Source: Octopus vulgaris (lineage: Eukaryota). From it: a DNA stretch of 64,000 bases. This document shows, one piece after another, positions 2,454 to 62,055 of the stretch (its first letter is position 1; each line of letters opens with the position of its first letter). The notes below the pieces were generated by a model. That model saw only the letters and a program-made list of their open reading frames with translations. It was not told where the DNA came from and made no database searches. Location: positions 194,866,001 through 194,930,000 of the forward strand of contig OX597815.1 of assembly GCA_951406725.2 (NCBI GenBank). Reading direction: 5' to 3'. The position numbers and the translations under genes were made by a program.

Positions 2454-2507
2454 CTATTTCTTTATTACCCACAAGGAGCTAAACACAGAGGGGACAAACA
2501 AGGACAT
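2454..2507 (-). mobile_element. Isolated 3' tail of SINE family A
   Basis: TATTTCTTTATTACCCACAAGGAGCTAAACACAGAGGGGACAAACAAGGACA, flanked by the direct repeat ATACGTACATAC (TSD). Confidence 0.75.
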
Positions 2508-2810
2508 ATATACGTACATACATACATACCTGCATACACACACATACACACATACATGTGGCTGTTATGAAATAGTCTTATTTGACTTAGCTTTCCGGCG
2601 GTTTCAGTTTGTAAAGTCCATAATAGCACATTCTATTGTTAATTTCTTTTCTGCATTCGGGATGTAATCAGCGTTATGCGTAAACTCAGGAAAAGGTAGG
2701 ATAATACACAAGGCAGGAGGGGAAAATTAAGTCGCAAATCAGTAGCCATAACGAAAAGAGGAAGGCGTGTGAATGATGAGTACTGCAGAGCAATTAAGGT
2801 CAATATTAAT

Positions 2811-2975
2811 TATTTTCTAGTCTAGGCACAAGGCCCGAAATTTGGGGGGAGGCGACCAGTCGATTAGATCGACCTCAGTACGCAACTGATTCTTAATTTA
2901 TCGACACCGAAAGGATGAAAGGCAATGTCACTTCGGTGGAATTTGAACTTAGAACGTAAAGACAGACGAAATATC
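2811..2975 (-). mobile_element. SINE family A (Meta-domain-like), distal unit with tail 2, separated from its array by a LINE insertion
   Basis: Has AAGGATGAAAGGCAATGTC..GGAATTTGAACTTAGAACGT and tail 2 (CTAGGCACAAGGCCCGAAATTTGGGG). Ends at AGACAGACGAAATATC, one copy of the putative TSD. Confidence 0.85.
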
Positions 2976-3365
2976 AATTTCTTTATTGCCCACAGAGGGC
3001 CAAACACAGAAATGGACAAATCAACTGATTGCGATCAGTAATACTTTATGGTTTTACATAAAATATGAATATAAAAATTATATAAAACATAAAAAATCGA
3101 ATGGAATTAACAATACAGAGACAACACAAATGTAGCGATGATCAGGCCACGCTCCGACCCCACAAGCCCCGATCACTGGTACCTTTATTGTTCTTCTTTT
3201 ATAGCTTATTCATACGGTTCTTTGCACACACAACACTCGTGCAACATGATTCCATCTCTTTTTGAACATACTCTCCGACAGACACCTCTTCTCCAGCCAC
3301 ACCTTCCTTTTCAAATGAAAAGTAAAAAATGATCGTAAATCGTGACCGGAGATAAATTTGCCCAC

Positions 3366-3685
3366 GGGCATATGGCGTTGTGGTTAAAAGCGCGGGCTAC
3401 TAACCCCAATAATCTGAGTTAAATTCCAAGCATTGACCTGAATACAACAACAATAATAATAATAACAATAACAATAATAATAATAATAATAATAATAATC
3501 ATAGCATCGAAAAATACCCTAAGAATGAGAACCCAGGTTCGAAATTTTCCCAAGACACCTGATGAAGGCTGGAGGGCATATCAACCGAAACGTTGTGTTA
3601 ACAACAAACAAGATGGGAACAAATATTCGTCAAATATACATAACGTACATAATACAGTTCTATATTTAATAGATGAGGAATTAAC
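3366..3685 (+). mobile_element. tRNA-headed SINE-like element with (AAT)n linker and hammerhead-containing Penelope-type tail
   Basis: A-box-like TGGCGTTGTGG (3373-3383), B-box-like GAGTTAAATTCC (3416-3427), (AAT)n 3441-3499, hammerhead 3554-3599, inverted terminal piece 3659-3683. The tail recurs at 55471-55556. Confidence 0.65.
3554..3599 (+). ncRNA. Minimal type I hammerhead ribozyme motif (PLE type)
   Basis: P1 GACAC/GTGTT, core CTGATGA (3559-3565), P2 GGCTG/CAACC (one mismatch), GAA, palindromic P3 ACGT, cleavage triplet GUU ending at 3594. Confidence 0.75.
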
Positions 3686-4855
3686 TATGAGAAATTAGGC
3701 CCTCACAAAGTTAAGTAGGAAAAATGTTACAAGGTCCGTACGGTAGTCGTACGATGTTTAACACCTCCACTTGACCCATTCATTTCCTATTTGCGGCTCC
3801 ATTCTTTTTCTGTTCAAGGATTCTCCTGCCTACTTGGATACCGCCAACTTTCCTGAATGGGAGAATAACAAAATATAACTCTCCGTATTTCACTAATTCT
3901 ACTTATTTTACACGATTTCGTACGCTTCCCCGATTATTTGGATATGAATGTAAGATATTTAGTTTTATCCTAGTTATCCTAAAACCGAATACATCCTTAT
4001 TCAGTATTTTGTCCATATCTCATTTCACGAGGCTACTGCTATCTTGGATTCGTTGCAAATAAGTTTCGCATTCAAAACTAAACATCTCTACTGCAGATTC
4101 CTGTTTGGAAGAAAGAGATCAGCTGCTTAGTCAAAAAACCACACGCACATATACACACGCGCGCGCTGCTCCTATATTCATTACGATGTACGCTAGTTCT
4201 TCAGTTGATATTTTCTATAAAGATTTATGGTCAAGCAGTACGCGCACATTTCCAACAACGGTGTATCAATCTACCTTGTGCAACATAATCAGTGATATAT
4301 GATAGTATTCATGGAAAAAACATCAAACAGTAATGCTGTCCACAGAAATTGGTTAGCCAAAGATTATAGCAACCAAACTTAAAAGGAAACGGAAACCAAA
4401 ATTTCCTTTGCCATTAAGAATTCAATATTTAAGTTTTAATCTGCACTATATGGGACATTGATAACCTATAATGGTGATTTTAATATGAAATGGAATGTTG
4501 CATAAAAATAGTGATGTTGGGCGACTTAATTTGAGGATGAAAGCCGTGAGATGTTTAGAATTACTCGTATGAGGTCTATAAGTATAAAATCACAGGACAA
4601 CAAATTCTAAGCAACAGAATACTAACTCACACCGATCAATGCATTGATGATTGTGAGGAAACCGGTTGCAAAACACATGCATGTCGCCCCATATGCCGGG
4701 TAATTGAAAAGTAACTCTGTATTTTAAAATACTTATAATTTATTTAGCTATAATCTTTTTCTCAAATTTGTTCTTTAAGTTCTTTGATGTATGAAAATTG
4801 ATACTTTGTTTTGTTTTTTTTTCAGATCCATTATTTTGTTTGAAATTTAGAAGCC

Positions 4856-5236
4856 CTACAAACATGGTCTCATCTCTCTAAAAAAATCACACTTATTCGT
4901 CGAAAGTAACCGGGTTCCACTCCCAGCTGCAAACGCAAAATTTTTTTTTTTCTTGTTTTTAGTTTGTTCAGTTTGGATGCTAGGTACATTAATTATTCTT
5001 TTGGACAGAATACTTTTGTTTTTTTGCAAACTCAGGATTTCTTCTCGTGAAAGTTCTGACGAGCTGTCAGATACATCTCTAAATAACTCATACATTTTGT
5101 CATTCTTATTTGCAACGGGGGAATCCATTATTTCTTTCTTCGTATTTGGCTCCTCCCCAGACAACATGTAAATCTTTCTTTCAACATGAGAAACAAACAT
5201 TTCTGTTCCAACGGTAGGCTCCTCGCTAGACGACAT
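4856..5236 (-). pseudogene. N-terminal remnant of LINE ORF1 (126-aa ORF)
   Basis: Charged, low-complexity ORF starting ~200 nt inside the putative 5' end of the 2977-5435 element, upstream of a CWKC..H knuckle remnant. No domain recognisable in this piece. Confidence 0.45.
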
Positions 5237-5451
5237 TCTTCCCCACTACGGAGTAAGGAACAACGCGTGATTTCTACAAGCACTTAGTGTTTTCAAATTA
5301 AAACTCCAGCAGTTAAAAAATTCAACAATTTAACACAAAACAGCAAATATTAGAAACAGAAGGTATTAGTAATATTAACACCAAAAAACAGCAATTTTCA
5401 CCACGAACACATGTGCGACGCGTAAGAAACAAAAGAGACAGGCAAAATACC

Positions 5452-6293
5452 TATTTCTTTACTACCCACAAGGGGCTAAACACAGAGGGGACAAACAAGG
5501 ACAGACAAAGGGATTAAGTCGATTACATCGACCCCAGTGCGTAACTGGTCCTTAATTTATCGACCCCAAAAGGCTGAAAGGCAAAGTCGACCTCGGCGGA
5601 ATTTGAACTCAGAAAGTAACGTTAGGCGAAATACGACTACGCATTCCGCCCGGCGTACTAACGTTTCTTATTTCTTTATTGCCCACAAGGGGCTATACTC
5701 AGACGGAACAAACAAGGACAGACAAACTGATTAAGTCGATTAGATTGACCCCAGTGCGTAACTGGTACTTATTTAATCGACCCCGAAAGGATGAAAGGCA
5801 AAGTCGACATCGGCGGAATTTGAACTCAGAACGTAACGGCAGACGAAATGTTGCTAAACATTTCGCCCGGCGTGCTAACGCTTCTTCCAGCTCGCTGCTT
5901 CAAAAAATCTTTTCTGCTCTAGGCACAAGGCCAGAAGTTTTTGGGGAGGTTAGGCAAGTTGCTTAGATCGACATCAGTACGCAACTGGTACCTAATTTTT
6001 CGACTCCGAAAGGATGAAAGGCAAAGTCGACCTCGGTGGAATTTTAACTCAGAACATAAAGACAGACAAAGTACAGCTAAACGTTTTTTTTTTATTTCTT
6101 TACTGCCCACAAGGGGCTACACACAGAGGAGGCAGACAAACATATTAAGTCGATTATATCGGCATCAATGCGTAACTGGTACTTATTTAATCGACCCCGA
6201 AAGGATGAAAGTCATAGTCGACGTCGGCGGAATTTGAACTCAGAACGTAAAGACAGACGAAATACAGCTAAACGTTTTTGCCGGCTCGCCTCC
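5452..6293 (-). mobile_element. Tandem array of four SINE family A units
   Basis: Four copies of CGAAAGGATGAAAGGCAAAGTCGACCTCGGCGGAATTTGAACTCAGAAC. Units are about 5452-5668, 5669-5900, 5907-6090 and 6092-6293. Tails 1 and 2 are both present. Confidence 0.9.
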
Positions 6294-7565: not shown

Positions 7566-7690
7566 GATGTCTTTTTCCAGGAGGACAGATTGAATCAGCT
7601 GTTGCTGATCTAAACAACATTCGTGAATACGCGCAACATACACGCTTATTTCTAGCTCTAAATTACATACCATTACACGACAATAGATGT

Positions 7691-7966
7691 GGAGGCACAT
7701 GGCCTAGTGGTTAGAGCAGCAGACTTGCGATCTAGGGATCGCGGGTTCGAATCTCAGACCGGACGATGTGTGTGTTTATGAGCGAAACTCCTAAGCTCAA
7801 CGCGGCTCCGGCAGAAGGTAATGGGAAACTTCTACTGACACTTTCACCACAGCTTTCTCCTGCATCTTGCAGGTCACCTGCGACGGACCAGGTGGGGAAC
7901 CTATACTCCAAGGAAACCGGGAAACCGGCCCTATGAGCTAGGCTTGGCTCGAGAAGGAACAAACAA
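7691..7966 (+). mobile_element. tRNA(Arg)-like SINE, family B
   Basis: Head GGAGGCACATGGCCTAGTGGTTAGAGCAGC..GGGTTCGAATC (A and B boxes) and tail GGCTCGAGAAGGAACAAACAAC. Other copies at 13371 and 22234. Confidence 0.9.
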
Positions 7967-8100
7967 CAGCGACACTCGACTATACATAAGAATATGCCAG
8001 AATGGACTGTAGGCTGTTCAGTATTTCAGCTATCAATAGTAGGCAATCCAAATTAGGGAGCATCTGCGACGTAGTTCCTCCCGCAATATATAGCAGTAAA

Positions 8101-8492
8101 AAGGCGGTGAGCTGGCAAACACGTTAGCATGCCGGGTGAATTGCTTAGCGGTATTTTGTCTGCCGCTACGTTCTGAGTTCAAATTCCGCCGAGGTCGACT
8201 TTGTTTTTCATCCTTTCGGGGTTGATTAAATAAGTACCAGTTACGCACTGGGGTCGATATAATCGACTTAATCCATTTGTCTGTCCTTGTTTGTCCTTTC
8301 TGTGTTTAGCCCTTTGTGCGTAGTAAAGAATTAGGTATTTTGTCTGTCTTTACGATCTGAGTTCAAATTCCGCCAAGGTCGACTTTGTTTTTCCTCCTTT
8401 TGGGGTCGATAACCTAAGTACCAGTTCACACTGGGGTCGATCTAATCGATTGGCCTCCTTCCCCAAAATTTCGAGCCTTGTACCTGGAGTAG
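8101..8492 (+). mobile_element. SINE family A dimer (tail 1 unit plus tail 2 unit)
   Basis: Head AGGCGGTGAGCTGGCAAACACGTTAGC, two body copies, junction AAAGAATTA|GGTATTT at 8334. Confidence 0.9.
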
Positions 8493-9434: not shown

Positions 9435-9866
9435 TTACTCTCTTTTTTAGTCTTTTACTTGTTTCAGTCATTTGACTGCGGCCATGCTGTCGCACCGCCT
9501 TTAATCGAGCAACTCGACCTCAGGACTTATTCTTTTGTAAGCCCAGTACTTATTCTATCGGTCTCTTTTGCCGAACCGCTAAGTAACGGGGAATAAACAC
9601 ACCAGCATCGGTTGTCAAGAAATGCTAGTGGGACAAACACAGATACACAAACACATACACACACATACACATGCACATATATATATATATATATATACAT
9701 ATATACGACGGGCTTCTTTCAGTTTCCGTCTACCAAATCCACTCCCAAGGCTTTGGTCGGCCCGAGGCTATAGCAGAAGACACTTGCCCAAGGTGCCACG
9801 CAGTGGAACTGAACCGGGAACCATGTGGTTGGTAAACAAGCTACTTACCACACAGCCACTCCTGCG
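9435..9866 (-). mobile_element. tRNA-derived CORE-like SINE, family D, with internal microsatellite
   Basis: Minus head GCAGGAGTGGCTGTGTGGTAAG..GGTTCAGTTCC, CORE-like CCTTGGGCAAGTGTCTT, internal (TA)/(TG) tract, tail CAGCATGGCCGCAGTCAAATGACTGAAACAAGTAAAAGA. Confidence 0.9.
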
Positions 9867-9905
9867 TACATTGTTATTGTTTTAATTACATTCCTTTGAA
9901 GTATG

Positions 9906-12739
9906 ATTTCTTTATTACCCACAAGGGGCAAATATAGAGAGGGACAGTACAACATGATTGGGGTCATGTTAAAACTATGATATAAAACATTAAATGAAGG
10001 TAAAAATTACAGTGAAAATTACAATGAAATCGAAAATCGAATGGTACACATTAACAGAACAAAACATGAAGAGGACGCATGAAACAGAAAAAAAACAGGA
10101 TTGCCGACCCCACGAGCCCTGTTTTTTCCCACTGAAACCTTGGTAGCTGACTTATGGCGTGTTCATGCAGTAACTTTCACTCCCAGCAATCGTGCAACAC
10201 GCTTCCATCTTTTTTGAAACTCGCATACTGACAGACACCTTTTCTCTAACTCAACCTTTCTTTTTAAGTGGAACTTAAAGAAGTTCACCAAGGCGAGGCC
10301 AGAGATCATGGTGTCTGTCCCTATATCTTTCATTCTGGTCTTCCATATAACCTCTTTCGCGACTGCTACTATGACGAGAAAGCAATGCTTACCTTCGTTT
10401 GTCAAGAAACTAGGCGAGTCAATTTTTAAAATTGTCTCAGCCGATAGCTGTACTCTTCTTCCGTCCGTCAACTGGTGTTCTGCATAAACCCACACGTCCG
10501 AAATTTCCGGCACTGGACAATAGCGTGAAGGACTGTTTCCACATCCTGCTCGCATCTTGGATAGTTCGATGGTCCATCGTGACCATGTCTTGCGAACTTA
10601 TCCCGAACGGGTAAGGCTCCTCTGTAACATTGCCAGGCCAAAGACTTCTGAAAGTAACTCAGCGTCCTCGGTCCGAATGTCCTTTGGAACAGGCTGTCTA
10701 ACTGATTATTATCGAGACCCAAGGTCCTTCCCAGGGCATCGTCATTTCCGGCCTCTACCAACCTACTATAAAAAGCTGCGGTGGTACCAAAGCCACCGGC
10801 ATTGCCCGACTTGCGGAAGTGGAAGAGGGCCTTACGGCACTCTGAATACCGCACACTGAACCTAAATCTGCGACGATACCAGGTTTCTCTACCACCCAAA
10901 CTGGTAAAGCTGGGGAACATCTGCCTCGCGTGCGGGGACCACACCCGTTCACCATCCATGTAGAGCCAAAGATGCCTCAACCTCAGCGCATGTTTGCGCA
11001 TCAACAGCCAGCCAAGGCATCCCTAACCCACCCTTTAACGGCTTCTGACAGCAAATAGAACGTCTTACAAGAGAATGGGTGCCCTTCCACAGAAAGCGAA
11101 AGATTTGCCCCTCCAACTTGCTCAACCACGAATCCGGACAAGGAACGATGGTTAGGCGGTAAGTGATGACCGATGCCATAAACACATTGGCCATCGCCAA
11201 GACCAAGTCTCGACCGCGTGAGCCACCTTGCACGCCACCTCAGACCAGTTCTTTTCTATCTGGAGATCTGGACCAAACCAGATCCCTAGCAATTTAACTG
11301 GGCCCTCCGTCCAGCATCCCACGATGCTATTTGAAGGCATCGACTTGCCCCTCCAAGTGCCGAGTTGCAAGCCGACTGACTTTTCCCGATTAATTTTTGC
11401 TCCTGTCACTGTCTCGTAAGACTTGATGGTATCTCTCACATTCTGTAGGAGTTCCAACTTGGTCACGATGATGGTGATGTCGTCCGCATACGATGTAACA
11501 GATCCTCCACCCACTGGATTCGTCGGGATGGCGCTCTGATTTCTCAGTAATGGCTCGAGAGCCATCACATATAAAAGCGGGGAGAGCGGACACCCTTGAC
11601 GAACTGACCGTTTGATGCGGAACGGCTTCGAAAGGAAGCCATTCACCCTAAGGATCGAGTCGATGTTGTCGTACAACTGTATAATCCACCTGAGAAAACC
11701 AATGCCTAGACCGAACTGTGCAAGCACATACACCAGGTACCGATGGTTCACCCTATCGAAAGCTTTACTCTGGTCTAAATGGACCAGTGCCCCACCTTTG
11801 CCAGAATTGTTCCCGAACCCTTCTATGGTGTAGCGTATAAGGTGAAGATTATCCTGATTGGTCCTTCCGGGGACCGCACAAGTTTGTACTTCCCCGATTA
11901 GGCCATCCGCGACATGCGTCAACCTTTTCGCTAACACCTTGGCCAAAATCTTCACCTCTGCATTCAGTAGGGTGATGGGTCTGAAGTTATCTATTCCATC
12001 CCCCTTGCTCGGGTCCTTCCTGATCAGCGTCACCACTCTCCGGCGCACAGATCTGGGAATGAACCCATTCTGCCGCCAGTTCGCGAAAACGCCGGCCTGT
12101 ACGTACCCGAACAAGTCTGGCATACTTTTATATAGTTCGGAGGGTAAACCATCAATTCCAGGCGCCTTACCTCCGCCGCAGTCGGCCATGGCTTCAGCTA
12201 CCTCCTCAGGCGAGATTGACCCTTCCCAGCTCTCCGCGTCCTGCCCCCAGATGCGCGGCAGCCCGGCGAGGAGGTCCGTACGGTCCGTCCTCTCACCCGG
12301 TCCGCCGTCGCTCCCGAAAAGCCGGGCGAAGTGCTCCAGAAACGTCCGACACATCTCCGGTTCGGTTACCACATCGCCTTGCTCGTTCGTCACAGACTTG
12401 ATTGTGGAATCGTTTCAACGTTGAGCTTCCACAACTCGTGCCCATCCGGAAGCCTTAATACCCTCGCTCCCCATTGCGCGGAGTCTAGCTCTGACGATAC
12501 AACCCATGTGTTCGGCTTCGAGGTGCTGGTTTAATTCCAATCTCTTCAGCCTAACCTGGGCTCCATCGCCAGATCTCATGGCTTCCTCTAAGGCCTTAAC
12601 TAACCCCATTTCTTTTCTACGCCCACTAGCTACTAGTTCTATGCTATATCTAATGGACTCGTATTTAATGGCTCTCTTGAGGGCGTACCACCATTTGTTG
12701 TTAATAATGGAACCGGTTAACGCCTTCTGAATTAATAAT
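9906..12739 (-). mobile_element. 5'-truncated L1/Tx1-clade LINE
   Basis: GC-rich island with RT reading frames. Perfect 16-bp TSD ATTCCTTTGAAGTATG at 9890-9905 and 12740-12755. The 3' end is CCCCTTGTGGGTAATAAAGAAAT with no polyA. Confidence 0.93.
10163..12730 (-). pseudogene. Frameshifted LINE ORF2 (reverse transcriptase, zf-RVT and C-terminus; endonuclease lost)
   Basis: The 413-aa ORF 11152-12393 has KAPGIDG, NFRPITLLN, LDQSKAFDRV, VRQGCPLSP, YADD and KINREKS. Downstream frames have FRFLW..GGLG and ALPVRDK..PRCEQDVETVLHA. Several frameshifts. Confidence 0.92.
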
Positions 12740-12780
12740 ATTCCTTTGAAGTATGCCGGATGGCAGAAATCTATCGCATA

Positions 12781-13198: not shown

Positions 13199-13370
13199 AG
13201 AAGTCTATCGCATAGCGGATCAAACTTTAACACGCAGTCGTTCATAAAAATAAAGTCGCTAATGTAGCGTTTAGAGAATCACCGAGCGAGCATTTTGGGC
13301 TTGCAAAGGTATAGTGCAATCTGTAATATACAGTTAGTAGTAAATTAAGGTAGTGTAGTGCTTGATGAGT

Positions 13371-13649
13371 GGAGGCACATGGCCTAGTGGTTAGAGCAGC
13401 GGACTCGCGGTGGAGGGATCGCAGGTTCGAATCTCAGACCGGGCGATGTGTGTGTTTATGCGCGAAACACCTAAGCTCCACTCGGCTCCAGCATAAGGTA
13501 ATAGCGAACTTCTGCTGACTCTTTCCTCCTGCATCTTGTAGCTCACCTGCGACGGACCGGCGTCCCATCCAGGTGTTGAACCTATACTCCAAGGAAACCA
13601 GGAAACCGGTGCTTATGGGCCAGGCGTGGCTCGAGAAGAAACAAACAAT
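13371..13649 (+). mobile_element. tRNA(Arg)-like SINE, family B
   Basis: Colinear with 7691-7966. Head TGGCCTAGTGGTTAGAGCAGCGGACTCGCG..GGTTCGAATC. Confidence 0.9.
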
Positions 13650-24386: not shown

Positions 24387-24811
24387 TAAGGAGCTGAGGT
24401 TGACTTTACCTTTTCTCCTTTAACGGCAGAATCGGTAGGACGTCGGGCGAAATGCTTTGCGGTACTTCGTCTGCCACTACGTTCTGAGTTCAAATTCCGC
24501 CGAGGTCGCCTTTGCCTTTCATCCTTTTGCCGTCGATTAAATAAGTACCAGTTACGCACTGAAGTCGATGTAATTGACTTAATCCGTTTGTCTGTCCTTA
24601 TTTGTCCCTTCTGTGTTTGGCCCCTTGTGGGTAGTAAAGAAATAGGTATTTCATCTGCCGCTACGTTCTGAGTTAAAAATTCCGCTGAGGTCGACTTTGC
24701 CTTTCATCTTTACGGGGTCGATAAATTAAGTACCAGCTGGGTACTGGGGTCGATGTAATCGACTGGCCCTCTCCCCACAAAATTTCGGACCTTGTGCCTT
24801 AAGTAGGAACG
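24387..24811 (+). mobile_element. SINE family A dimer (tail 1 plus tail 2)
   Basis: 18-bp TSD AACATTGCTAGCAAAGAA at 24369-24386 and 24812-24829. Junction AAAGAAATA|GGTATTTC at 24645. Confidence 0.9.
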
Positions 24812-30170: not shown

Positions 30171-30571
30171 AAGGCGGCGAGCTGGCAAAATCGTTAGCAC
30201 GCCCGACGAAATGCGTAGCAGTATTTCGTCTGCCGCTACATTCTGAGTTCAAATTCCGCCGAGGTCTGCTTTGCCTTTCATCCTTCCGGGGTCGATTAAA
30301 TAAGTACCAGTTACGCACTGGGGTGGACATAACCGACTTAATCCGTTTGTCTCTCCCTGTTTGTCCTCTGAGTGTTTAGCCCTTTGTGGGTAGTAGAGAA
30401 ATAGGTATTTCTCCTATCTTTATGTTCTGAGTTCAAATTACGCCGAGGTCGACTTTGCCTTTTCTCCAATCGGGGTCGACGAAGTAAGTATCAGTTGCGT
30501 ACTGAGGTCGATCTAATTGACTGTCTTCATCCTCAAAAATTTCGGGCCTTGTACCTAGAGTAGAAAAGAAT
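30171..30571 (+). mobile_element. SINE family A dimer (tail 1 plus tail 2)
   Basis: Head AAGGCGGCGAGCTGGCAAAATCGTTAGCAC. Junction GAGAAATA|GGTATTTC at 30404. Confidence 0.9.
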
Positions 30572-33750: not shown

Positions 33751-35868
33751 TCTGCTTGTAACTTATAAATTACCTGCAATGAAGAAGAGCAAAAACATTA
33801 GGCTGTATACAGGACGCGGTACGATGCTTGTGAGTGTGTGTTTGTATGTCTGTGCGTGTGGATATTTGAGTCTATTATAATCTATGCATGCGGATGCATG
33901 TTCCTGTATGTATATATATTTCCATATATACGCTGTTGCCCTTCTAATATCTTAGTGAATGTAAGTACAGATGTTCTCAGAATACATTGATAAGCGTCTC
34001 TGAAACAAATGTTGTCTTACTGCTTGTAAAGCTTAATCGCTCGTGCCTATTATCTAAGTCATGTGACAACAATATATAACTCAATCACTGGCTGGAGAAT
34101 AGAGAGCGTGCAACCTAGGGGCAATAAAAACACTTTGGACACCCTTATGAATATTTTCATGGCCGAAACTGAGTGTAAAATCATTTTTCGCTTGATTTGA
34201 AACATTACCTTTCCATTATTGGGTTTATTAGATTCGATCGATGGACAAGTGTAATAAGAATAATATTTGTGTTGACACCCGTATTTATTTTAATATCAAG
34301 ATGAGAAAATCGACCGTGTTTGTAATAAAAAATAAGATCTGATTTTGCACCTCAAAAGCAAATTTCGTTCTCGCGTAAGTGAACGTTGTTACCGTGTAAT
34401 CTGTCCACCTGCAATGCTGCTCCCGGGATTTGCTAATATTTGTTAATAGACATAAAAAATGTACTGACTGGAAATTGGCCTTTTTAATTCAGATGAGATA
34501 TATAGGAAGATTATTGGTGTTCTAGTGCTAAACCTGTTCAGAAAAGGAACAGGGCATATGACGAGTAAAGGCATTCAAATATTATGAGTTATTAGGTCTT
34601 CTTTTTAAGTTAGTACTTAGTAGCTTTTGGTATAAGTATAATATAATATCTGCACCCCCCCCCCCCAGAAAACACAGAAAGCGGTTAGATTTATCTGAAG
34701 TGACAGCTTTCATTAAATATGAAGGAAGTACATTTCATAGTCTAGATAATGCCTTCGATAAGTTGTTCGAAAATGATTTGGAAATGTTATGGCTGGAACA
34801 ATGCAGCTGTCCTTACAAAGAGCGTATGTAATGTTAGGCAACAATGACAACATGGTGAGAGTTATGTGGATGGAAGTTTGAAAGTGTAGCATGAGGTTTC
34901 GAAATGTGTGTGTGTGTGTGAAAAGATGTGTGTTTGAAAGAGAGAGAGAGACATAGACAGAGAGACAGAGGGAGAGGGACAGAGAGAGAGAGAGAGACAG
35001 AGAGAATATCTGTAAGTGTGTGTGTATGTCAGTGAGAGCGAGATAGAGAGAGCGTTTGCGTGTGTGGTGTTTGAATAAGAATGTCTGCTTATTGGGTATA
35101 TACATGCGTCAGCTAGACAGTATATATTTCTTTAAAGCACACAATGTATTGAAGTTGCAAATATGTACTATAAAAGAAACAATAATTCAGCATTTTATAA
35201 GTAACTGCGTTCCAACGAACCGTGTACGTTTCCCTTGTTATTCAATCGAGAACATTTTTCTGTGTATTGCCTATAATAGAAATATTTTAACTTCTTTTAG
35301 CTTATTATTAATTCTTTTCCATTATTTCTATGGAGGACTTCCTTTCCGAATTTTCGTTTTCTCATTTAGTAATATTTTAGTATATTTTTTCTATTTTTTC
35401 ACATTATTCTGAATTCCAAACGTCTGATTGTATTTCAGCGGACAGTAAACTGCTGGACTGTCCACTATTGATATTGAATGGCTTGCCTCTAATAAGGTTC
35501 ACCGAAGTAATTCAAGAAGCCACAAGAAGGTGCCGATCGTTTTCACATAAGCATACCTGTCTTAATAACCGGTATATATTTTACAAAAAAAAGTGAAACA
35601 AAATAATAAATCTACCTCTCCACAATATTACTCACTATTACTGCCTACAGAAAGTAACTCCACAAATTATTCCTCGTATACTTTCTTTCACAGAGTCCTC
35701 TTTAAAACATTTAGCCACAATCACTTGTTGAAGATCATCTCAATGTACAATGCATGTAAAACACCAACAAGTCATTGATACCTGTTATGTCGCACGTTCG
35801 GATGCCTCTACTACTCTACTCCTACTACTCTCTTCTACTCTACTGTTCTCTAGTCTACCTGTTTCTTT

Positions 35869-36276
35869 ACTACCCACAAGGGGCTAAACACAGAGAGGAC
35901 AAACCAGGACAGACAAACGGAATTAAGTCGATTATATCGACCTCAGTGCGTAACTGGTACTTACTTAATCGACCCCGAAAGGATGAAAGGCAAAGTCGAC
36001 CTCGGCGAAATTTGAAGTCAGAACGCAATGGCAGACGAAATACCTATTTCTTTATTACCCACAAGGGGCCGAACACAGAGGGGACAAACAAGGACAGACA
36101 TAGGTATTAAGTCGATTACATCGACCCCAGTGCGTAACTAGTACTTAATTTATCGACCCCGAAAGGATGAAAGGCAAAGTCGACCTCGGCGGAATTTGAA
36201 CTCACAACGTAACGCAGACGAAATACCGCAAAGCATTTCACCCGGCGTGCTAACGTTTCCGCCAGCTCGGCGCCTT
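35869..36276 (-). mobile_element. SINE family A dimer (tail 1 plus tail 1)
   Basis: 14-bp TSD TTCTCTAGTCTACC on both sides. Internal junction GACGAAATACC|TATTTCTTT at 36044. Confidence 0.92.
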
Positions 36277-48947: not shown

Positions 48948-49610
48948 TATTTCTTTATTGCCCTCAGGTTGCTAAACATAACGGGGACAAACAAGGTCAG
49001 ACAAATGGATTAAATCGATTACATCTACCCGAGTGTGTAACTGGTACTTAATCGATCTCGAAAGGATGAATGGCAAAGTCTACCTCGGCGGAATTTGAAC
49101 TCAGAACGTAACATCATAGAAATATTGCTAAGCGTTTTGCCCGGCGTGCTAACGATTCTGTCAGCCCATCGTCCTCTCTGCTGTCAATATTTCTTTCTTT
49201 ATTGCCCACAAGGAGCTAAACATAGAAAGGACAAACAAGGACAGACCAAGGGATGAAACCGATTATATTGACCCAAGTGCGTAACTCGTACTTATTTAAT
49301 TGGCCCCGAAAGGATGAAAGGCAAAGTCGACCTCGGCGGAATTTGAACTCAGAACGTAGCGGTAGACAAAATACCTCTTTCTTTACTACCCACAAGGGGC
49401 TAAACACACAGAGGACAAACAAGGACAGACAAACGGATTCAGTCGATTATATCGACTCCAGTGCGTAAATGGTACTTATTTAATCGACCCCCGAAAGGAT
49501 GAAAAGCAAAGTCGACCTCGGCAGAATTTGAACTCAGAACGTAGCGGCAGACGAAATACCTCTAAGGCTTTCGCCCGGCATGCTAATGATTCTGCCGGCT
49601 CGCAGCCCTT
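48948..49610 (-). mobile_element. SINE family A monomer followed by a tail 1 plus tail 1 dimer
   Basis: Three body copies. Junction GACAAAATACC|TCTTTCTTT at 49375. Confidence 0.9.
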
Positions 49611-61589: not shown

Positions 61590-62055
61590 TGACGAAATAC
61601 CGCGAAGCAATTCGCCGACATGTTAACGCTTCTTATTTCTTTACTGTCCACAAGGGCCTAAATATAGAGGCGACGACAAACAAGGACAGACAAACAGATT
61701 AAGTCAATTACATCGAACCCTAGTTCGTCACTGGTACATAATTTTTCGGTCACGAAATGATGAAAGGCAAAGTCGACCTGGACGGAATTTGAACTCAGAA
61801 CGTAACGGCTGACGAAATACCTATTTCTTTACTACCCACAAGGGGCCAAACACAGAGAGGGCAAACAAGGACAGAGAAAACAGATCAAGTCGATTACATC
61901 GACCCCAAGCCGCAATTGGTACTTAATTTATTGACCCAGAAAGAATGAAAGGCAAAGTCGACCTCGGCGGAATTTGAACTCAGAATTCAACGGCAGACGA
62001 AATACAGCTATGCATTTCGCCCGGCGTGCTCGCGTTTCTATCGGTTCGCCGTCTT
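61590..62055 (-). mobile_element. SINE family A multimer
   Basis: Two tail 1 units plus a head remnant. Junctions at ~61633 and 61821. Confidence 0.88.

Follow-up and report, generated by a model that had tools for sequence, protein, structure and literature searches.

The genome of Octopus vulgaris contains a LINE family that is targeted, genome-wide and site-specifically, to the SINE that is likely its own partner, and this SINE also inserts into itself. The site-using LINE family is long-lived and inserts almost only at one spot in the SINE head. We consider it probable that L1/Tx1-group LINEs of one clade have inserted many times, each time independently, at this spot in the head of a very abundant SINE with which they share their tail, that the endonuclease likely recognizes about 20-25 bp, and that the same machinery likely carries the SINE. 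Coordinates refer to the window, i.e., the whole 64,000-nucleotide stretch analyzed (contig OX597815.1, positions 194,866,001 to 194,930,000 of the forward strand), and all counts come from one genome (2.8 Gb, about 30 large contigs).

In the window, a SINE array on the minus strand is split by a LINE remnant (2809..6293). Five SINE units make up the array, in which two internal junctions are at a second position near head nt 13, not at GGTATTT. Read in the SINE direction, unit 1 (6094..6293) has an internally deleted head and tail 1, and is followed by unit 2 (5906..6093), with tail 2 and the same head deletion, unit 3 (5670..5899), with a complete head and tail 1, and unit 4 (5452..5669), which ends in tail 1 and whose upstream join is at the second position. 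The upstream target copy (5436..5451) consists of ~13 duplicated nt and ~3 target-like nt that are likely LINE-borne, and borders the LINE 5' end (4893..5435), which comprises the 5' UTR and the start of ORF1 (5'-end type A). The LINE 3' end (2977..3362), with the end of ORF2, the 3' UTR, and the tail common to the SINE, adjoins the 3' part of the host SINE (2809..2975), where a copy of the site (2963-2975), box B (2938-2950), and tail 2 are found. In place of the LINE body is a non-LINE stretch (3363..4892, no strand assigned), containing another short repeat near 3360-3660 (identified by eye), match-less sequence, and a dispersed 190-nt repeat at 4691-4880. The latter is the only repeated part of 3661-4900 in a genome search, and 3661-4900 had no match among the collected loci. 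The repeat search was dominated by microsatellites. An earlier note, made from the window sequence alone, had read 2977-5435 as a LINE at the SINE site, flanked by GGTATTTTGCCTGTCT before 5435 and GATATTTCGTCTGTCT after 2977. Both flanks and the position hold, but the element is a remnant with a non-LINE middle: similarity to a full-length copy is confined to its ends (~4893-5417 and 2977-3362), which match it at 76% and 81%.

When each end of the window LINE was used as a query, 40 matches were obtained per end, and 30 copies were cut out for junction scoring. The site follows the LINE 3' end in 28 of these 30 relatives (one was cut short by Ns), and in all 30 the 5' end is preceded by a copy of the site together with SINE head or tail sequence. 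An exact LINE-tail pattern matched the genome 72 times, and the site directly follows the LINE 3' end in 63 of the 65 distinct matches that were scored with flanks. The chance of an insertion at the site in the right orientation is ~6e-5, as calculated from evenly spaced stretches that total 600 kb and contain 71 units with the site. A lack of enrichment in the LINE 3' flanks, which the earlier note had named as evidence against its proposal, was thus not found. Target-specific Tx1 families have been delimited as having more than 20% of flanks in one sequence type (passages of PMC4494074); the octopus LINE exceeds this share, and its independence from hitch-hiking is evident from the comparisons below.

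If one SINE-LINE-SINE composite and one dimeric SINE master had spread as units, the junction would be inherited rather than targeted. Such a history, which we regard as extremely improbable, would account for the outer duplications around whole composites and whole arrays, and for the mostly full-length state of young LINE copies. Of 40 full-length young (B) copies, 36 allowed both host halves to be scored, giving mean p-distances of 0.021 for the LINE, 0.097 for the host head, and 0.109 for the host body (0.020, 0.084, and 0.095 without CpG), and LINE and host distances are uncorrelated (Mantel tests: LINE-body p=0.15, LINE-head p=0.49). Host halves with five times the LINE divergence and no correlation refute the composite for the LINE. 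Independent insertion, as had been proposed, is instead what these 36 copies display: LINEs that differ by 2% sit between SINE halves that differ by 10-11%, and the LINE hosts are older, unrelated SINE copies. Both tail 1 and tail 2 occur at the ends of host SINEs, and many hosts retain their own outer duplications. A single composite is also difficult to reconcile with three different LINE 5' ends at the site (types A, B, and C, all starting at the same place), and with the existence of truncated and off-target copies.

A boundary is visible in 11 5'-truncated B copies. Nine of these adjoin the SINE head, at differing points (L112, L119, L321, L324, L328, L330, L335, L337, and L338); the remaining two are L113, which is off-target with a 13-nt duplication, and L138, which is without a head. 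At the off-target copies L113, L329, and L332, the duplications resemble the site and SINE sequence is absent; therefore, the LINE is not a composite. Two older off-target LINE copies have duplications beginning GGTATT and CTGTA. At L318 and L319, one LINE adjoins the site that precedes another LINE. L120 and L139 were also considered as tandem LINEs and were set aside, since an upstream flank common to both probably reflects a segmental duplication. SINE body at the 3' end without a head at the 5' boundary was seen in 15 of 20 older copies with long flanks and in six more. Joint movement of head-less truncated LINEs with the SINE body was not supported: an outer duplication was found in none of the 14 head-less truncated copies tested, which likewise speaks against the composite. 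We can only guess that the head loss in older copies results from deletion at insertion, of which L335 and L337 are small-scale cases, or from later loss. The young LINE is also present at ~99% identity in contigs of four sequencing runs (four organism codes), which end within ~30 nt of the junctions; the contigs of these four runs were too short for any to bridge a junction.

The LINE 3' junction lies after about SINE nt 47 (counted from GGCGG), between box A and box B motifs that, by eye, fit the consensus. The target duplication at the site is ~13 nt. The earlier note had reported 16-nt TSD-like flanks, with a mismatch between the 5' and 3' copies; a duplication does exist, but at 17 loci T stands two bases before the LINE start where the host has C, and therefore the real duplication is ~13 nt and the additional target-like letters are likely LINE-borne. 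Young B copies are found only at the C variant of the site (36/36), compared with 20 of 94 intact heads that have this variant (p=5e-18), and older LINE copies join the G variant. Upstream of the LINE start, variation at positions -24 to -3 is ~1% in B hosts, whereas the same positions in intact heads of the same type vary by 2.5-5.5% and the distal head by 7-8%. Such low variation is compatible with a recognition sequence of 20-25 bp, and also with RNA-borne sequence having overwritten these positions.

Full-length site-using copies are ~5.35 kb. Their ORF2 (1133 aa, open in the two copies checked) encodes an N-terminal AP-type endonuclease (PF03372), RT (PF00078), and a C-terminal CCHC zinc finger (zf-RVT, PF13966), with no RNase H family in a domain search at E 0.01, and a separate 440-aa ORF1 has a zinc knuckle (PF00098, 23.2 bits; cut-off 20.8). 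The best solved-structure match of ORF2 is human L1 ORF2 (E 2e-64), and R2 is far weaker (E 2e-20). The ORF2 layout, the separate ORF1, the closer match to L1 than to R2, and the duplications of 13-16 nt are all features of the L1/Tx1 group. All 29 homologues are unnamed proteins with at most 40% identity, and therefore the homologue search gave no clade label; an L1 endonuclease chimera apart, no named Tx1 protein was among these 29 homologues or 16 solved structures. The Tx1 label is provisional, as it derives from the domain layout rather than from a tree with named Tx1 references.

Sister LINEs serve as a natural control. In the window, a 5'-truncated copy of family E (9906..12739, minus strand), with the same tail and with RT and zf-RVT remnants, lies at a non-SINE site between perfect 16-nt duplications (9890-9905 and 12740-12755). 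Two insertions outside SINEs had been listed here, at 9906 and 12781. The site is indeed not a SINE, but 12781 was rejected as an insertion end, and 9906 and ~12740 bound this one sister LINE. Family E has the tail common with the SINE, and none of its 29 3' ends is at the site; two join the nt-13 position. One loose family E match to the site was also seen, with SINE sequence not following. Further sister LINE families have other repeated targets, and close sister families have open ORF2s with a ~70% identical endonuclease and different targets. In a tree of the ORF2 3' third (42 copies, two excluded as too short, midpoint root only), a 100/100 branch separates the 22 site-using copies from 20 others, and young B copies are nested among older site-using copies. 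The hairpin loop is a specificity determinant in such elements; here, it hardly differs between site-using and other LINE families.

The SINE and the LINE have ~45 nt of tail in common, with a conserved small hairpin. There are 102,945 exact SINE tails in the genome; the site directly follows 24,254 of them, or about a quarter, and the nt-13 position follows 1,589. By extrapolation, the genome has ~330,000 site-bearing SINE units. Duplications of at least 11 nt were found for 28 of 71 tail-1 monomers (0.3% when shuffled). The element can be classed as a SINE with a LINE-derived tail, given its shared 3' tail, high copy number, and target duplications. Neither ARAGORN nor Rfam gave a tRNA match for the SINE head, and three SINE central-domain motifs, sought with a view to MetaSINE or another named SINE superfamily, were not found in two of the supplementary files of PMC4824008.

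The same site is used by the SINE itself, as had been suggested from the window: a target copy followed by a complete new head occurs at 102 exact junctions genome-wide, with none for a reversed control, and the 100 of these 102 that were listed fall into ~83 loci. Of 30 nested loci examined, 25 have the downstream tail-site junction and five lack it. A private host variant is present in both target copies at four nested loci (L251, L272, L275, and L278), and the two copies are discordant at several others (L260, L266, L273, and L276). In a 664-kb sample made up of the window and 60 evenly spaced stretches, the site adjoins 16 of 50 tail-1 ends and none of 21 tail-2 ends. The seven junctions of tail 1 with GGTATTT that had been reported for the window are all present. 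One is at 5451 (minus strand), and the others are within SINE dimers at 8102..8475 (junction 8334, plus strand), 24425..24787 (24645, plus), 30171..30571 (30404, plus; tail 1 + tail 2), 35860..36276 (36044, minus; tail 1 + tail 1), 49190..49607 (49375, minus), and 61634..62030 (61821, minus). The tail AAAGAAATA has one change in three of the seven. Two dispersed tails had been described as followed by GGTA. The first, at 2454, is borne out as a lone tail-1 fragment (2456..2505, minus strand) followed by GGTATG. The second, given as 35869, also joins GGTA, with which the 17-nt target duplication flanking the dimer at 35860..36276 begins, although its position is ~10 nt off. For 25 TAG-type SINEs at dispersed sites, the pre-existing target was compared with GGTA; 17 agree at 3-4 of 4 positions (background 4.5%), 12 of them exactly.

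The multimers require a separate consideration. The LINE might be site-specific while the SINE arrays arise solely from local duplication or unequal exchange, without SINE targeting. Adjacent units have a rare variant in common in 14 of 66 cases, compared with 3.7% of random pairs, and therefore local duplication contributes to array growth; some arrays are 97-99% alike internally, and long runs of a 184-nt period are present. We nevertheless think it very unlikely that local duplication is the sole source, in view of the 102 nested junctions, each with a target copy and a new head and with varied spacer lengths among them, and of the private-variant duplications at four nested loci. For the most part, adjacent units differ roughly as much as unrelated ones do (mean 0.092 vs. 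0.108, 66 pairs), tail-1 and tail-2 units are mixed in arrays, and dispersed targets bear GGTA. In addition, divergence is greater in the downstream unit than in the first (0.067 vs. 0.043, 33 pairs, p=0.017), as expected if a younger SINE lands in an older one.

The earlier note had allowed that the repeated junctions could descend from one dimeric master copy, and had asked whether dimers form a single clade. They do not. No pair among 1074 array pairs (47 arrays) has two rare variants in common in either unit, and no two of the 47 arrays share one rare variant in both units, which refutes a single dimer master. The GCGTAGCC head matches the first unit in 5/5 dimers, as movement of whole dimers predicts, and neither correlation of divergence between the dimer head and the first or second unit is significant; many dimer masters remain part of the best explanation. 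The proposal that the SINE grows tandem arrays by self-insertion can be retained in part. Nested insertions occur, but head-less junctions are ~240-fold commoner than nested ones (24,254 vs. 102, counted with different patterns). Most array junctions have no second head and therefore are not each a simple insertion; they probably originated by several routes. From this excess, we infer either that nested loci serve as numerous new masters through read-through or that the host's head gives way to the incoming one.

For the L1/Tx1 group, it is established that reverse transcription is target-primed at a preferred nick. On the explanation that we favor, site preference would be set by the endonuclease, a step that we infer from the insertion pattern. 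The bottom strand would be nicked at the SINE position and target-primed reverse transcription would follow, with the SINE mobilized in trans through the tail hairpin that it shares with the LINE. Dispersed SINE copies may reflect a relaxed form of the same preference, with GGTA at the nick. A nested SINE could read through its own tail into the host body and so seed head-body-body multimers, which would then spread and at times duplicate locally. LINE insertion would part box A from box B, and that SINE copy would be silenced as a result.

It is also conceivable that the RNA mainly sets the site, with the 3' target letters of read-through transcripts pairing with the nicked strand and the endonuclease only loosely specific. 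GGT sites are used by 96 of 138 TAG-type SINEs and 2 of 42 of the CAA type (Fisher p=1e-14, including units of the same array), a sharp split that pairing could produce, and CAA-type SINEs favor AGAA sites, which echo their own tail repeat. The tail letters of the CAA type match the targeting LINE, yet this type rarely uses GGT sites. The split, which tail matching alone does not predict, could reflect RNA pairing or different partners at different times. It could also stem from different ages or partner LINEs. Pairing would let the C with which the duplication begins in every young LINE copy (36/36) perpetuate itself, and would be compatible with the target-like letters carried at the LINE 5' end (T in 17 C-host loci); read-through pairing raises the efficiency of R2Ol, according to parts of PMC6530143. 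At dispersed sites, however, the 3' and 5' copies do not differ significantly in how near they are to the motif (the 3' copy is nearer in 10 cases and farther in 6, p=0.45), a 3' extension cannot read the near-invariant bases upstream of the nick, and target use follows the ORF2 tree. We therefore consider it unlikely that RNA is the main determinant, and return to recognition by the endonuclease. More tentatively, the two elements may form a self-amplifying loop with target coevolution, in which the SINE makes hundreds of thousands of landing sites for its helper, while the helper gains safe havens and splits the SINE promoter. The LINE would have tracked the G-to-C change of the site, and read-through RNA tails would steer each SINE subfamily. 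We see this as a possible extension, though not a likely one as a whole.

Overall, the targets of known sequence-specific LINEs are RNA genes, microsatellites, and unrelated transposons, and here the target is a non-autonomous partner. This would entail a feedback in which a successful SINE provides ever more target sites and a successful LINE disables SINE promoters. The system accounts for a large genome feature, tens of thousands of SINE multimers with a 184-nt period, and warns that SINE dimers of this type need not be one subfamily. Sister families with different targets, and a one-base target shift within one lineage, are natural sequences for specificity tests; therefore, both the long-standing problem of how an AP-type endonuclease acquires and shifts its specificity and the share of RNA are directly testable.

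R2, which has a different endonuclease class, targets rRNA genes, and the octopus ORF2 is far nearer to human L1. The rDNA-specific R2 and R1 are similar to the octopus LINE in their precise 3' junction, variable 5' junction, and possible help from read-through (sections of PMC6530143). As far as the consulted text of PMC4494074 goes, Tx1L of Xenopus targets Tx1D, Keno targets U2 snRNA genes, and Kibi and Koshi target microsatellites; these too are sequence-specific endonuclease-RT LINEs with multicopy targets, but no SINE is among the targets and no feedback on target number is described there. An account of octopus elements lists L1-Tx1 and SINE activity, and the words "target" and "nested" are absent from its main text (PMC13282606). 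SINE-targeting LINEs did not appear in the available portions of PMC4758252, PMC4824008, PMC5035012, and PMC8869645, and literature screened by title or abstract contained no LINE targeting its partner SINE, although Repbase entries or supplements could hold one.

The closest known system, within what is described in excerpts of PMC4494074, is that of the crocodilian Tx1-Mar LINEs and SINEU SINEs, whose common target is Mariner-N4, a DNA transposon. As in the octopus, a Tx1-type LINE and its presumed partner SINEs share one target in a multicopy repeat, and independence was argued from truncated copies. SINEUs are less strict than the LINEs (SINEU-1 23%, SINEU-2 13%, and SINEU-3 90%), and tandem insertions of SINEU-3 sandwich the target duplication (PMC4494074, same excerpts). 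By contrast with Tx1-Mar and SINEU as described there, where the target is a third element, the octopus target is within the partner SINE, between its promoter boxes, and therefore each SINE copy is a new target; the octopus partnership is additionally backed by the common 3' tail. The octopus elements are thus a new variant of target-specific Tx1-like systems, in which the partner SINE itself is the target.

A second junction position lies at about nt 13 of the SINE head, for which a genome-wide pattern count gave 1,589 exact matches, and junctions there are present in the window (5669, 6083 and 61634) and at two further loci of the same genome (L220 and L223). Its users are mostly SINEs of the CAA tail type, together with two LINEs of sister family E. 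SINE heads also occur in tandem, with 5-8 per run at a period of 64-66 nt and a target copy ending each head (G000, contigs C10:17996024-17996504 and C14:84691111-84691408).

Among the monomer SINEs in the loci examined, GCTTAGCG-type heads were found in 23/23 copies with tail 2, which occurs only with such heads; tail 2 is older than tail 1 in these monomers. The head variant GCGTAGCC co-occurs with the body variant CCGT, a combination that would retain pairing in the predicted SINE RNA hairpin. This modeled hairpin contains the target (window 8140-8170, + strand).

Other repeats are also present in the window. The LINE remnant (2977-5435, - strand) encloses a dispersed 190-nt repeat (4691-4880) with 378 candidates in the genome, and further short-repeat families have heads that appear tRNA-like by eye (3360-3660 and 7690-7970, + strand; 9510-9860 and 13370-13500, - strand).

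In one sister LINE family, which is very young, the insertions abut a single repeated target that is not a SINE and starts with CACATGGAGGAA (L239, L240, L243, L245, and L247-L250; 3' flanks at ~5990-6100 in LINE orientation), and no Rfam family covers this target. Many copies of this family have an open ORF2 of 1132 aa, and tandem copies are frequent, spaced at ~5.26 kb. Further sister families (L237, L238, L231, L234, L216, L228, and L230) each have recurring 3' flanks of their own. These flanks suggest a radiation into differently targeted families that have one common tail.
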